UHGV virus genome: UHGV-0099063
Direction: 5' to 3' (one strand)
Origin: a virus
DNA length: 15,441 nucleotides
In this document: positions 10,244-12,690 of the stretch, piece after piece
Layout of the letters: the number at the start of each line of letters is the position of its first letter
Position numbering within the stretch: position 1 is the first letter of the stretch
The notes under the pieces: generated by a model
Databases searched by the model: none
Seen by the model: only the letters and a program-made list of their open reading frames with translations
What the model was told of the DNA's origin: nothing
Program-made: the position numbers and the translations under genes

Positions 10244-10540
10244 ATGGAATTTCTGATAGTTTTTGTTGTTGTTTTGGTCATCATTCTTTTTGTTTTGCTA
10301 AGCATTAGCAAAAAGCTATCTCAAATGATTGAACATAGCTCTAATCGCGCAAAAGAAGAAGAGCATCTAATTGATATAAAAGAGATTCTCTCTGATATAA
10401 AAATCACATTAGATGAAATAAAATACACAACAGATCTAATTGAACAGTATAAAATACCAACCCCAAACGAGAGAAAAGCAATAGATCAATATCGTATTGA
10501 CTTAGAAATCGACGAAATGCTAAGCAAAAGAAAAGACTAA
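10244..10540 (+). CDS. small membrane-anchored protein co-transcribed with cI (rex/sie-position gene), function unknown
   Basis: 98 aa; N-terminal hydrophobic helix EFLIVFVVVLVIILFVLLSI, then a charged, probably helical domain. GGAGGG 4-5 nt before the ATG; starts 40 nt after the cI stop; markedly AT-rich relative to flanks; followed by a strong terminator. Confidence 0.65.
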   Translation: MEFLIVFVVVLVIILFVLLSISKKLSQMIEHSSNRAKEEEHLIDIKEILSDIKITLDEIKYTTDLIEQYKIPTPNERKAIDQYRIDLEIDEMLSKRKD

Positions 10541-10545
10541 AAACA

Positions 10546-10572
10546 CCCGGCCTCAGCGCCGGGTTTTCTTTT
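10546..10572 (+). terminator. rho-independent terminator ending the cI operon
   Basis: Stem CCCGGC/GCCGGG (10546-10551 and 10558-10563), 6-nt loop, followed by TTTTCTTTT (10564-10572). Confidence 0.75.
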
Positions 10573-10694
10573 CCTGCCGTTCACCACCCAATCAACCATC
10601 CTCATCATAGACAAGCATCAAGCCAAAGGTAACACCTTCACCCCGCACGTAAGCCCTCAAACACCAATCAATCAGCAACATTTACAAAAATAAA

Positions 10695-10780
10695 ATACCT
10701 TTGTTATCCATCACTTATAACTTATTTACCATAAAATATAAATTAGGTTATTGACCACACCTATAACCTAAGTTATCTTT
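10695..10780 (+). promoter_or_regulatory. left operator/promoter region OL-pL
   Basis: Operator-type palindromes ATAACctaaGTTAT (10763-10776) and variant ATACCtttGTTAT (10695-10707), plus a TTATAAC half-site. Candidate pL: -35 TTGACC (10750-10755), 17-bp spacer, -10 TATCTT (10773-10778) overlapping the operator. Confidence 0.5.
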
Positions 10781-10825
10781 AAGCCATCAGCAGGACGCTG
10801 GAAGCCAAACGGAACAGATTGGCAG

Positions 10826-10866
10826 GCTCTTTAACATTGATGGGATTGTCCCGCCGAAATGCGGGA
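10826..10866 (+). promoter_or_regulatory. nutL: boxA plus boxB hairpin
   Basis: GCTCTTTAACA (10826-10836), then hairpin TCCCGCCGAAATGCGGGA (10849-10866), identical to the nutR boxB; downstream of the candidate pL and upstream of N. Confidence 0.65.
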
Positions 10867-11296
10867 ACTGAGTTTAACCAAACAGGAGGTGCCGTAATGG
10901 TGCACTAACGCGGTTAGACCGCAGCCGAAAGGCAATGCAGCAGTAATGATGCTGCCCTGAGTCGCCATTGAGCGAGCCTGCTTAGCATCGGGTTAGGGTC
11001 AATATATTAAAAGTAGCTCCGGTAAAGCAGCGCGAATGCCAGACGCGCACCGGTTATCAGCGGCGATGAAGCGGCAGAGACTCAATGGCATGAGCGCGCT
11101 CACTGCGAGAGTGTGAGTCAAAGAGTAGTTGGCTTTGGGATTGGGTGAATGCGCAGACTGATGCGATATGACCTGCACTGGCGAGGAGACGATCCTCAGG
11201 GGGTCACTAGGCGTGATAATGACCAGGCGAAGCACTAACCAAGCCGGAGATCAGTACCGTCCACCTAATCACCAAAGCCAATCATCGGAGTTCAAC

Positions 11297-11566
11297 ATGA
11301 TAATCGTTACTTATCTGGCTGATGATAACGCCAGAAATCGCCGCAGAGCACGCAGACAGGCTCAACGTGAACAGGCAATGCAAGAACAGCGATTGGCACG
11401 AAAAATTGCGCTAAAGCTCTCTGGTTGCGTCAGAGCAGATAAAGCAGCATCACTCGGAAGCCTTCGCTGCAAGAAGGCAGATGAATGCAGTGGAAGTATT
11501 TGCCTGCCAAACGTAGCTATTTACGCGGCAGGCTACCGGAAATCAAAACAACTGACGGCGAGGTAA
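11297..11566 (+). CDS. N: N-type antiterminator (P22 gp24-like) with N-terminal arginine-rich motif
   Basis: From ATG 11297 (GGAG 6 nt upstream): MIIVTYLADDNARNRRRARRQAQRE... with C-terminus LPNVAIYAAGYRKSKQLTAR, matching the recalled P22 gp24 (MTVITY...LPGVALYAAGHRKSKQITAR). The upstream in-frame extension from 11168 lacks an RBS and would bury the arginine-rich motif. Confidence 0.8.
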   Translation: MIIVTYLADDNARNRRRARRQAQREQAMQEQRLARKIALKLSGCVRADKAASLGSLRCKKADECSGSICLPNVAIYAAGYRKSKQLTAR

Positions 11567-11568
11567 TT

Positions 11569-11931
11569 ATGGGTCAGGAAGAAAAATATGAGCTTAAAAA
11601 GCTCATTGAAGAAGACGCCATAGAAGAAATTGCAGCATTAACAACAGCTATAAAGAATATTAGGTATGCGCTAAATACGCTTATCTCCTCATGCGACAAA
11701 AATAGCAGGGAATTTTTGATACTTGGCGCAGCTCTAGGAATAGTTGATGCGGCAACGCTTCACCTAATTACTCATGACGATATTCTTATTGAGCCGTATG
11801 AAACATTACTGCTTGTCAGGCAAAAAATGGCTGATGCCGCAGCAAATGGAGACATTCAACTTTACATCGACTTAAGGAAAGTATTAAGGCGAATGGTCAG
11901 AACTGAAGGAGATATCCCCCTGACAAAGTAA
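11569..11931 (+). CDS. hypothetical early protein, 120 aa, between N and ral
   Basis: ATG 11569 sits 2 nt after the N stop (start MGQEEKYELKK...). Acidic, predicted helical; no family recognised. Confidence 0.55.
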   Translation: MGQEEKYELKKLIEEDAIEEIAALTTAIKNIRYALNTLISSCDKNSREFLILGAALGIVDAATLHLITHDDILIEPYETLLLVRQKMADAAANGDIQLYIDLRKVLRRMVRTEGDIPLTK

Positions 11932-12121
11932 GGGGGTGAAGAGGATTTTACTATTTTTCTCGCTGTAGGGGTACACGAGAACCACCGAGCCTGATGTGGT
12001 TAAAAGACAGGCACAATCTTTACTACCGCAAGCCACTATTTAAGGTGATATATGGAAGAAGAATTTGAAGAGTTCGAAGAGCATCCTCAGGATGTGATGG
12101 AACAATACTAGGACTATCCGT

Positions 12122-12322
12122 ATGACTACGACTATTGATAAAAATCAATGGTGTGGACAATTCAAGCGATGCAATGGATGCAAGCTGCAATCGGAATGCA
12201 TGGTTAAGCCTGAAGAAATGTTCCCTGTAATGGAGGATGGGAAATATGTCGATAAATGGGCAATACGAACGACGGCAATGATTGCCAGAGAACTTGGTAA
12301 ACAGAATAACAAGGCTGACTGA
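12122..12322 (+). CDS. ral: Ral restriction-alleviation protein
   Basis: 66 aa MTTTIDKNQWCGQFKRCNGCKLQSECMVKPEEMFPVMEDGKYVDKWAIRTTAMIARELGKQNNKAD, essentially identical to lambda Ral as recalled. Confidence 0.85.
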   Translation: MTTTIDKNQWCGQFKRCNGCKLQSECMVKPEEMFPVMEDGKYVDKWAIRTTAMIARELGKQNNKAD

Positions 12323-12340
12323 TAGTCGGCCTTTATTTTT
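12313..12340 (+). terminator. candidate rho-independent terminator overlapping the ral stop
   Basis: Stem GGCTGACT/AGTCGGCC (one G-U pair) with 3-nt loop, followed by TTTATTTTT (12332-12340). Confidence 0.5.
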
Positions 12341-12363
12341 GGCATAAACAATATGGGGTAAAA

Positions 12364-12690
12364 ATGAAAGTTTTAATGGTTTATGAAAATGTTCCAGAGT
12401 CGACTGAAATCTATATTTTTGATGCCAATGAAGATGAAGTTAACGATTTGAAATCGTCTCACGGCAATTACACAAATGCTAATTGTGATGAAAGTATCGA
12501 AAAAGCACTATCACGTGTTCTTGTCAGAATTAGTGATCCAGAACATTGTGATGATGATTGGCTTTCTTATTGTGGAGCGGTAAAAACTGATGCAGGAAAA
12601 TGGAGTAAAAGTAAAGTTGATAACTCAACTCCAATCATTATGAAAGATAGTGATATTGAAATGGTAATAATAACCGGAATGATTATGTAG
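12364..12690 (+). CDS. hypothetical acidic protein, 108 aa, AT-rich, adjacent to ral
   Basis: About 21 Asp/Glu against about 10 Lys/Arg; clearly lower GC than the flanks; followed by a perfect 9-bp inverted repeat (12706-12733) and a terminator. No family recognised. Confidence 0.6.
   Translation: MKVLMVYENVPESTEIYIFDANEDEVNDLKSSHGNYTNANCDESIEKALSRVLVRISDPEHCDDDWLSYCGAVKTDAGKWSKSKVDNSTPIIMKDSDIEMVIITGMIM

Follow-up and report, generated by a model that had tools for sequence, protein, structure and literature searches.

The 120-aa open reading frame that lies just behind the antitermination gene N in a 15,441-nt stretch of viral DNA (UHGV-0099063, hereafter the window) is, judged by sequence identity, hkaQ of coliphage HK620, a gene already catalogued and not new. 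Its pattern of substitution and the conservation of its start mark it as a genuine protein-coding gene, and its distribution shows it to be an optional accessory cassette in a recombination-prone mosaic slot. As for its role, analogy with the surrounding genes makes of HkaQ a candidate dispensable accessory conflict protein, which would bind a protein of the host or of a rival phage; we hold this reading tentatively, with slightly less than even confidence. As it stands, hkaQ is a catalogued orphan gene, and what has been gained is a better description of its boundaries and context.

Reading frame of hkaQ

The features discussed below are collected in Table 1. An initial annotation of the window had noted a 120-aa gene starting 2 nt after the stop codon of N, with ral as the next neighbour. 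Reading the sequence gives the same coordinates, and both flanking genes are recognized by their Pfam models. After the N stop (TAA, 11564-11566) come a TT spacer (11567-11568) and the ATG of hkaQ (11569-11571), and the frame runs to a TAA at 11929-11931.

Table 1. Features of the N-ral region of the window, with the evidence for each.
Feature	Position	Strand	Basis
pL promoter-like site (TTGACC, 17-nt spacer, TATCTT)	10751..10779	+	pattern scan
nutL: boxA-like GCTCTTTAAC and boxB hairpin CCCGC-CGAAAT-GCGGG	10826..10866	+	sequence
N, antitermination gene (89 aa)	11297..11566	+	Pfam PF25694 N_peptide, E 2.2e-15; PHROG 271, E 2.5e-33
Shine-Dalgarno sequence GAGG of hkaQ	11560..11563	+	within the last codons of N (last sense codon AGG), 5 nt before the ATG
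hkaQ, coding sequence	11569..11931	+	363 nt, i.e. 120 codons and TAA
Conserved right boundary of the variable slot	11933..12036	+	blastn; sequence just outside the start of lambda sieB
ral, restriction alleviation (66 aa)	12122..12322	+	Pfam PF11058, E 3.8e-48; 97.7% nucleotide identity to lambda

An ATG located further upstream, at 11485, would give a 148-aa form of the protein, and some annotations adopt it. The divergent homologues share the start residue of the shorter form, beginning at the equivalent methionine with MSLEEKYEL or MNLEEKYEL, so that the 120-aa form is the correct one; the upstream extension is lacking in the Citrobacter-cluster proteins P0003, P0026 and P0028.

That the frame is a protein gene, as had been supposed from the start, is borne out by comparison with a Citrobacter homologue 64% identical to HkaQ. 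The dN/dS ratio is 0.17 (pS 0.66, pN 0.23), with synonymous sites near saturation against this homologue, which comes from Citrobacter-type prophage contigs. One could still imagine a chance or decaying frame, without function, simply carried along with N: HkaQ has no known domain, its distribution is very narrow, and truncated or frameshifted copies occasionally turn up (P0004, P0005, P0031). Yet a dN/dS this low at saturating synonymous divergence effectively refutes such an origin. The start, the length and a near-invariant motif of 19 residues are kept in other genera, down to 40% identity, and the gene is intact, at 80% of its length or more, in 95 of the 96 E. coli genomes that carry it. 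We give next to no credence to a frame devoid of function.

Two further features of the frame were considered and rejected. A frameshift fusion between N and HkaQ finds no canonical slippery heptamer in 11480-11566, and the 148-aa extension is absent from the Citrobacter-cluster proteins. A perfect palindrome, ATGAGCTTAAAAAGCTCAT, at 11588-11606 looks like a terminator on the minus strand; it is not conserved in the Citrobacter and Yersinia genes and was put down to chance.

Identity and distribution

The gene had first been described as unassigned. This is right in that the HMM and structure searches assign it to no characterized family, and wrong in that it already has a name and a family: it is hkaQ of HK620 (GenBank AF335538, protein AAK28865, annotated 'unknown'), where it has an identical length and likewise starts 2 nt after N, and its product matches the PHROG 7374 profile from end to end (residues 1-120 against 1-120 of 120, E 3.7e-79), a family with no assigned function. 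Identity between the window frame and hkaQ of HK620 is 98-99%, and 99.2% at the nucleotide level over 363 of 363 nt, the three differences being all nonsynonymous and none synonymous, hence three amino-acid differences. Nucleotide identity reaches 99.2-99.4% when hkaQ of HK620, HK629 and HK630 are taken together, and the same gene is present, at 99% nucleotide identity, in the Stx1a-converting phage Stx1a_10051. These four are the only distinct phages with hkaQ among 50,697 records. The prophage of strain H19 is among the Stx1 prophages that have it as well.

HK620 and the window nevertheless differ around this shared gene. The immunity region of the window is different and its N leader is longer, and while in HK620 and H19 hkaQ is followed by a convergent gene of 164 codons, hkaP, the window has no hkaP and its hkaQ is joined to the region upstream of ral.

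Among 5,426 complete genomes of E. coli, hkaQ was found in 96, in every case on the chromosome. Beyond this species the family is tiny. A profile search of 1.84 billion representatives returned eight matches, made of family members, fragments and three repetitive proteins; another search, word-indexed and run with a broader profile, recovered only nine clusters among 5.8 billion proteins. The three repetitive proteins (P0007, P0010, P0011), long and eukaryote-like, were read from their sequences as chance matches inflated by repeats and were not retained as relatives. With nine clusters and eight exhaustive matches, the power of any comparison is low. Full-length forms exist in E. coli, E. albertii and Citrobacter freundii. 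In Yersinia pekkanenii, Symbiopectobacterium purcellii and further contigs the forms are short, of 92-93 aa, and 40-44% identical; for one of the predicted proteins, P0030, the gene call used an upstream start in a different frame and gave 115 aa. Across the collections searched, the family is restricted to lambdoid prophages of Enterobacterales.

The literature that we searched contained no functional study of hkaQ and no phenotype for it, the sole mention found being of the region between hkaP and hkaQ, used as a neutral site for insertion. The HkaQ sequence is absent from the supplements of PMC12373910. A protein of a ral-containing accessory region, orf184 (Silas et al.), was compared with HkaQ at every residue, its sequence being taken from the deposited model; it begins MEALVVERSEDGYW and is a different protein.

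Transcription and probable translational coupling to N

The gene had been placed under both pL and N antitermination. Membership of the pL operon stands. The pL-like site and nutL are both colinear with their annotated counterparts in HK620, pL/OL (positions 10686-10868 align with 3438-3620 of L001) and nutL; the nutL of the window also matches nutR of that phage at 82%. The N protein of the window is 93% identical to N of HK620; no NCBIfam model matches it. Dependence on N is the less likely part. Scanning the window turned up no terminator-like site from pL as far as the end of ral (Rho-dependent terminators being unpredictable by such a scan), and the annotators of HK620 put tL1 downstream of hkaQ, so that hkaQ is more likely to be an immediate-early gene, co-transcribed with N. 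Its expression would then probably proceed without need for N antitermination, a timing that we infer from the layout of the operon. An annotation of tL1 was not found in the lambda records. In the window a terminator-like hairpin is present at 12311-12333, after ral.

Translation appears to tie the two genes together too. The ribosome-binding site of hkaQ is inside N and its ATG is 2 nt past the N stop; HkaQ is thus probably made by translational coupling. The junction, of the form GCGAGG-stop-NN-ATG, is invariant in the homologues of E. coli, Citrobacter and Yersinia, in alternative coupled cassettes and in the short-form locus L156, and it is kept among homologues of 40-64% identity; in Symbiopectobacterium the spacer between the N stop and the hkaQ ATG has 3 nt. 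Because this junction is invariant from E. coli to Yersinia, HkaQ is very likely translated by ribosomes that terminate on N. The N alleles that have no coupled gene downstream end in AGA TGA and have no Shine-Dalgarno sequence.

The variable slot between N and ral

The initial annotation took hkaQ to be inserted between N and ral, on the premise that in lambda ral follows N closely. The premise fails, as about 750 bp separate the two genes in lambda, with a convergent sieB (34482-35036) and orf28 between them. The idea of an insertion has to be replaced by that of a hypervariable slot, in which five or more alternatives are found downstream of one and the same N. Our survey of this slot covered 80 loci from IMG/VR, each with an N sharing 91% identity or more with that of the window. 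hkaQ occupies it in 19 of them and is missing from the other 61. What follows the N stop may otherwise be a 75-aa gene (PHROG 5305), a 97-aa gene with the same GAGGTAAttATG junction, a 156-aa gene (PHROG 1636), or no plus-strand gene at all, a convergent SieB then abutting N; SieB comes after N without hkaQ in about 32 of the 80 loci. The 97-aa cassette (L120) was examined as a remote homologue of HkaQ and rejected, with a BLASTP E of 0.2 despite the shared junction. The gene also changes N partners. It is found behind at least two types of N in E. coli, respectively 97% and 47% identical to that of the window, and in Citrobacter and Yersinia the N protein ahead of the homologue shares 34-40% identity with it.

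The right boundary element of the slot starts at the end of the hkaQ cassette. This segment matches lambda at 34.4 kb (blastn). It follows hkaP in HK620 and H19, sieB in L104 and in the Yersinia locus L048, and a gene for a GhoS-like protein in the Citrobacter locus L003. From just outside the start of sieB through ral, the window (11956-12351) is 97.7% identical to lambda. The boundary region (11925-12055) shows no unusual RNA fold (z -0.35).

In E. coli the downstream junction of hkaQ falls into three classes, leading to the hkaP cassette, to a direct fusion with the conserved element that precedes ral, or to a third module, which changes the last residues of HkaQ. The window belongs to the direct-fusion class. 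Compared with HK620 and H19 it lacks a 533-bp hkaP cassette, and the endpoints of this deletion fall within the imperfect repeats GGGGTGAAGAGG and GGGGTAAGAGG. All variants, including those of Yersinia and Citrobacter, have in common a left flank, formed by the C-terminal codons of N, and a right flank, the CTGTAGGGGTACACGAGAACCACCGAGCC... element. These shared flanks are probably the homologies through which the cassettes exchange. Genes of conflict surround hkaQ there: Ral, SieB and the GhoS-like protein are its slot neighbours, and in lambda and P22 the same N-ral slot holds sieB (with esc), being devoted to optional functions of phage-phage conflict.

Relationship of HkaQ to the N protein

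Such a constant association with N calls for an examination of HkaQ as an accessory factor of this protein, acting in antitermination, on the stability of N (for example against Lon) or in N autoregulation. Every homologue found sits directly after N, with the same coupled junction, in at least five lineages, and coupled translation would tie the synthesis of HkaQ to that of N. Many copies moreover bear, in PGAP annotation, the label 'antitermination N domain protein'. However, the same N (at least 91% identical) does without hkaQ in the 61 loci just mentioned, where unrelated genes may take the coupled position, and the N proteins with which hkaQ is itself paired share only 34-47% identity among themselves. 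Since the same N works without hkaQ in most loci, a role as N cofactor is unlikely, and recombination at the conserved flanks is enough, by itself, to account for a gene always placed directly after N. All told, we consider an accessory factor of N highly improbable.

The label itself, given by RefSeq/PGAP to many copies of HkaQ, has no support in sequence comparisons. The N_peptide model (PF25694) matches the true N only, with no match to HkaQ at E up to 1, and no NCBIfam model matched HkaQ. The protein begins MGQEEKYELKKLIEEDAIEE and has no N-terminal arginine-rich motif of the kind that binds boxB; with its pI of 5.0 it is acidic, where an N protein would be expected to be basic. HkaQ was therefore rejected as an N protein. 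In strain MBT-5 the name is borne by the gene next to a true N that has been left without annotation, and it therefore looks like a misplaced label. It is of some consequence that this unsupported name is spreading over hundreds of records, the true N being sometimes left unannotated.

The HkaQ protein

HkaQ (13.5 kDa) had been described as an acidic, helical protein. Helical it is predicted to be, as AlphaFold2 models it with four helices at a pLDDT of 74, or 77 with a four-sequence alignment; acidic it is only mildly, with 20 Asp and Glu against 15 Lys and Arg, for a net charge of about -5. The predicted fold is a generic helical bundle, and we draw no function from it.

The most conserved stretch of the family is the near-invariant motif IVDAATLHLIxHDDxLxEP, at residues 58-76 of HkaQ. 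Its end, HDDxLxEP, is modelled as a loop of low confidence, pLDDT falling below 50 at residues 68-75. Helices 3 and 4 are missing from the short forms, so that the conserved core is reduced to helix 1 (AIxNIRY/HxL) and to helix 2 with the segment behind it: A-x-x-IVDAATLHLIxHDDxLxEP.

Helix 2 (residues 49-67, FLILGAALGIVDAATLHLI) is hydrophobic, with a Kyte-Doolittle mean over 19 residues of 2.03, and 1.99 in Citrobacter; with a hydrophobic moment of only 0.10 it is not amphipathic. Might HkaQ then be an early membrane-associated protein, inserted through this helix and acting, say, in superinfection exclusion or in modification of the envelope? The segment belongs to the most conserved part of the family, and the slot otherwise houses a membrane protein, SieB. 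The Wimley-White octanol free energy of helix 2 is however marginal, between -1.3 and +1.3 kcal/mol, to be compared with -12.6 for the SieB-like protein of the slot and -18.2 kcal/mol for the 98-aa protein next to cI, and the Kyte-Doolittle value of the segment is only 1.5 in the homologues of Yersinia and Symbiopectobacterium. An invariant Asp and an invariant His lie within it, AlphaFold2, here at its highest confidence, packs it into the core of a soluble bundle, and HkaQ has no signal peptide. Because its free energy of membrane insertion is marginal, we take helix 2 to be a core or interface helix, and a membrane-associated HkaQ to be very unlikely.

The searches by HMM and by structure that had been proposed for this gene were run, and matched no well-characterized family. 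In Pfam only DUF4230 came up, at E 0.16, below threshold. The defence HMMs of PADLOC-DB gave no family at E up to 1, either for HkaQ of the window or for P0003. Two matches to sequences of the PDB, Tim29 (E 0.085, with a single protein as query) and a designed protein (E 0.0026, with a profile as query), were judged spurious. Searching the PDB and BFVD with the model of HkaQ returned no structural match, and neither sequence nor fold searches revealed a similarity to a known defence or anti-defence protein.

Three known families were considered by name and dismissed. HkaQ is not matched by the Pfam model of SieB (PF14163), and its best 19-residue Wimley-White value is -1.3 against -12.6 kcal/mol for the SieB-like protein. 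It is not Ral (PF11058), as only the gene at 12122-12322 matches the Ral HMM. A DNA-mimic antirestriction protein of the Ocr or ArdA type, which would call for a very high net negative charge laid out like the DNA backbone, fits neither the net charge of about -5 and pI of 5.0 nor the outcome of the PDB and BFVD searches.

Possible role of HkaQ

The reading of HkaQ as a conflict protein stems from the company it keeps. The gene is optional, quickly swapped and narrowly distributed, and it is found among sieB, ral, kil and genes of recombination or anti-RecBCD functions, which suggests a part in conflict. This is guilt by association, the neighbours sieB, ral, kil and gam/abc2 serving as the analogy. 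Ral, Kil, CIII and Gam/Abc2 are small, non-essential, early proteins of the same operon that bind a host protein, and they offer a model for HkaQ, although it resembles none of them in sequence or fold; hkaQ is upstream of their genes, directly after N, and is probably expressed earlier. SieB, the other obvious reference, differs in several respects. Its gene is convergent, while hkaQ is on the pL strand; HkaQ has neither a match to the SieB HMM nor strong transmembrane segments; and HkaQ is expected, from its position, during lytic growth, whereas SieB is made from the prophage.

On this model hkaQ would be the second cistron of the leftward early mRNA from pL, and HkaQ would be made with N as soon as infection or induction begins, without being part of the antitermination machinery. 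The invariant hydrophobic helix 2, together with the HDDxLxEP segment that follows it, may bind a protein of the host or of a rival prophage, and HkaQ would thus favour lytic growth, whether through counter-defence, anti-exclusion or host takeover.

A bolder version, which we regard as unlikely though worth stating, would see in HkaQ an unrecognized immediate-early protein of counter-defence or anti-exclusion, with a new combination of fold and motif (the hydrophobic helix and HLIxHDDxLxEP), made before any other leftward gene product and disarming a system of the host or of a resident prophage. In its most specific form HkaQ would be the antidote of the convergent HkaP in prophages of the Stx1 H19B and HK620 types.

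This leads to the question of whether HkaQ is a self-immunity escape factor, directed against the convergent exclusion gene of its own prophage, hkaP in E. coli or sieB in the lineages with short forms. The logic would be that of Esc against SieB in P22: the exclusion protein aborts lytic growth, and HkaQ, first made from pL, neutralizes it. Distribution is suggestive. In E. coli hkaQ is present in 96 genomes and hkaP in 66, none of which has hkaP without hkaQ, while 30 have hkaQ alone; a composite query of hkaQ and hkaP matches the same 96 genomes and is contiguous in 66. In IMG/VR all 15 hkaP loci (99-100% identical) have hkaQ next to them, and 23 loci have hkaQ without hkaP. All the short-form homologues examined (L048, L049, L155, L156, L157) abut a convergent SieB, with which they stand back to back, and immediate-early timing is what would suit an antidote. 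There are, however, several facts against such an escape factor. Three unrelated families supply the convergent partners of hkaQ (HkaP, SieB and the GhoS-like protein); SieB often follows N with no hkaQ in between, in lambda and in the 32 or so loci of the survey; and a homologue of HkaP, 50% identical, adjoins lysis genes with no hkaQ nearby. The copies of hkaP being 99-100% identical, their nesting within the distribution of hkaQ may reflect a single recent insertion followed by clonal spread (O26 and other STEC), and the exclusion role of HkaP is a guess from its position, made by the annotators of HK620. We therefore see an escape factor of this kind as rather improbable, and retain as the preferred reading the broader one, of an accessory conflict protein.

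Were HkaQ to act in counter-defence or anti-exclusion, this would be the first of the accessory functions that the pL operon expresses in Stx1-converting and HK620-type phages. The N-proximal slot, with hkaQ, its alternatives of 75, 97 and 156 aa, sieB, hkaP and the gene of the GhoS-like protein, would then be a compact and clearly bounded place in which to mine new genes of phage conflict.

A structured RNA in the leader of N

A separate observation concerns the leader of N, upstream of the genes discussed so far. Where HK620 has 80 nt, the window has a segment of about 400 nt (10869-11271), the core of which, around 10900-11154, is 69-98% identical to unannotated intergenic DNA of other phages, from E. 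coli, Hafnia, Klebsiella, Providencia and Edwardsiella, with a Yersinia contig in addition. An Rfam 15 scan gave no match, and neither a tRNA nor a tmRNA was found there. RNAalifold, applied to an alignment of eight sequences, proposes 57 pairs in 13 helices. Compensatory double changes occur in 20 of these pairs, against 7.2 ± 2.0 in shuffled alignments (none of 500 reaching 20) and 4-6 after sliding the partner columns by 1-3 positions; likewise 92% of the cells are paired, against 24-42% in the slid structures. In the Klebsiella phage RothC the element is located just downstream of the antiterminator Q, and not downstream of pL. Covariation and location taken together, it looks like an undescribed structured RNA of phage operons controlled by antitermination.

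Alternative cassettes at the N-proximal position

The position directly 3′ of N is a compact hotspot of accessory genes. Behind an N of the window's type (at least 91% identity), three mutually unrelated, uncharacterised genes take the place of hkaQ, the 120-aa gene that the window shares with HK620; the IMG/VR loci in which they lie are listed in the table. The variable interval between N and ral is closed on its distal side by a conserved non-coding boundary element, found again in lambda, just outside the start of the exclusion gene sieB, as well as in Citrobacter (L003, 2065-2099) and Yersinia (L048, 4902-4956). Its predicted RNA fold is not unusual (z -0.35), and it may correspond to the sieB promoter region together with a recombination joint.

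Features of the window and of comparison loci
Feature	Locus	Coordinates	Strand	Remarks
98-aa ORF	window	10244-10540	+	directly 3′ of cI, rexAB position
Bidirectional terminator-like hairpin	window	10545-10564		3′ of 98-aa ORF
Structured RNA, ~255 nt	window	10869-11271, core ~10900-11154	+	pL leader, between nutL and N
Boundary element (…CTCGCTGTAGGGGTACACGAGAACCACCGAGCCTGATGTGGTT…)	window	11933-12036		conserved, non-coding; 3′ of every N-ral cassette variant
108-aa ORF	window	12364-12690	+	directly 3′ of ral and its terminator-like hairpin
75-aa gene	L053	2771-2995		hkaQ position; PHROG 5305
97-aa gene	L120	2770-3063		hkaQ position; without PHROG; junction GAGGTAAttATG same as that of hkaQ
156-aa gene	L087	2208-2678		hkaQ position; PHROG 1636
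GhoS-like protein, 94 aa	L003	1713-1997	-	convergent; PF11080, E 8.6e-07

HK620 and E. coli H19 carry a 533-bp cassette with the convergent gene hkaP, 3′ of hkaQ, while the window lacks it. Comparison with H19 (L131, 2865-3420) locates the absence at window positions 11933-11944, and the endpoints of the cassette fall within imperfect direct repeats, GGGGTGAAGAGG and GGGGTAAGAGG. HkaP, a protein of 164 aa, belongs to PHROG 1244 (annotated as of unknown function). Its gene is present in 66 complete E. coli genomes, contiguous with hkaQ in all of them; a homologue with 50% identity, on viral contig L148, is flanked by lysis and late-regulatory genes.

Citrobacter-type loci have yet another convergent gene, which shares 18 nt with the 3′ end of the hkaQ homologue. 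Its GhoS-like product belongs to an antitoxin endoribonuclease family, and the gene recurs in L002, L004 and L049 (~5262). No GhoT-like partner was noticed in these loci.

In many E. coli genomes, for instance NZ_CP058682.2 (2125-2863), hkaQ carries the name 'antitermination N domain protein', assigned by the RefSeq pipeline PGAP. In strain MBT-5 the true N, directly 5′ of hkaQ, is without any annotation. The Citrobacter homologue bears the same name. We found no HMM support for this label, and it is probably a mislabel that propagates.

A structured RNA in the pL leader

Where the window has its structured leader segment, HK620 has a segment of 80 nt. Relatives with 69-98% identity occur in intergenic DNA without annotation in phages of E. 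coli, Hafnia, Klebsiella, Providencia and Edwardsiella, and in a Yersinia contig. RNAalifold predicts 13 helices, with compensatory changes in 20 of the 57 pairs, against 7.2 ± 2.0 after shuffling (none of 500 shuffles reached as high) and 4-6 in slid controls. Rfam 15 holds no matching family, and neither tRNA nor tmRNA was found in it. The element begins with a strong Shine-Dalgarno sequence and a mini-ORF of three codons (AGGAGGTGCCGTAATGGTGCACTAA). In Klebsiella phage RothC it lies directly 3′ of the antiterminator gene Q and 5′ of tRNA genes.

Other reading frames of the window

The product of the 98-aa ORF (PHROG 18389, annotated as of unknown function) has a very strong transmembrane helix at its N-terminus (Kyte-Doolittle 3.67; Wimley-White -18 kcal/mol) and is a candidate membrane protein expressed from the prophage. 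PADLOC gave only a weak ZorB/MotB-like match (E 0.009). The 108-aa ORF, without a Pfam family above threshold, falls in PHROG 4658 (likewise annotated as of unknown function); lambda, by contrast, has its ea10 region there.
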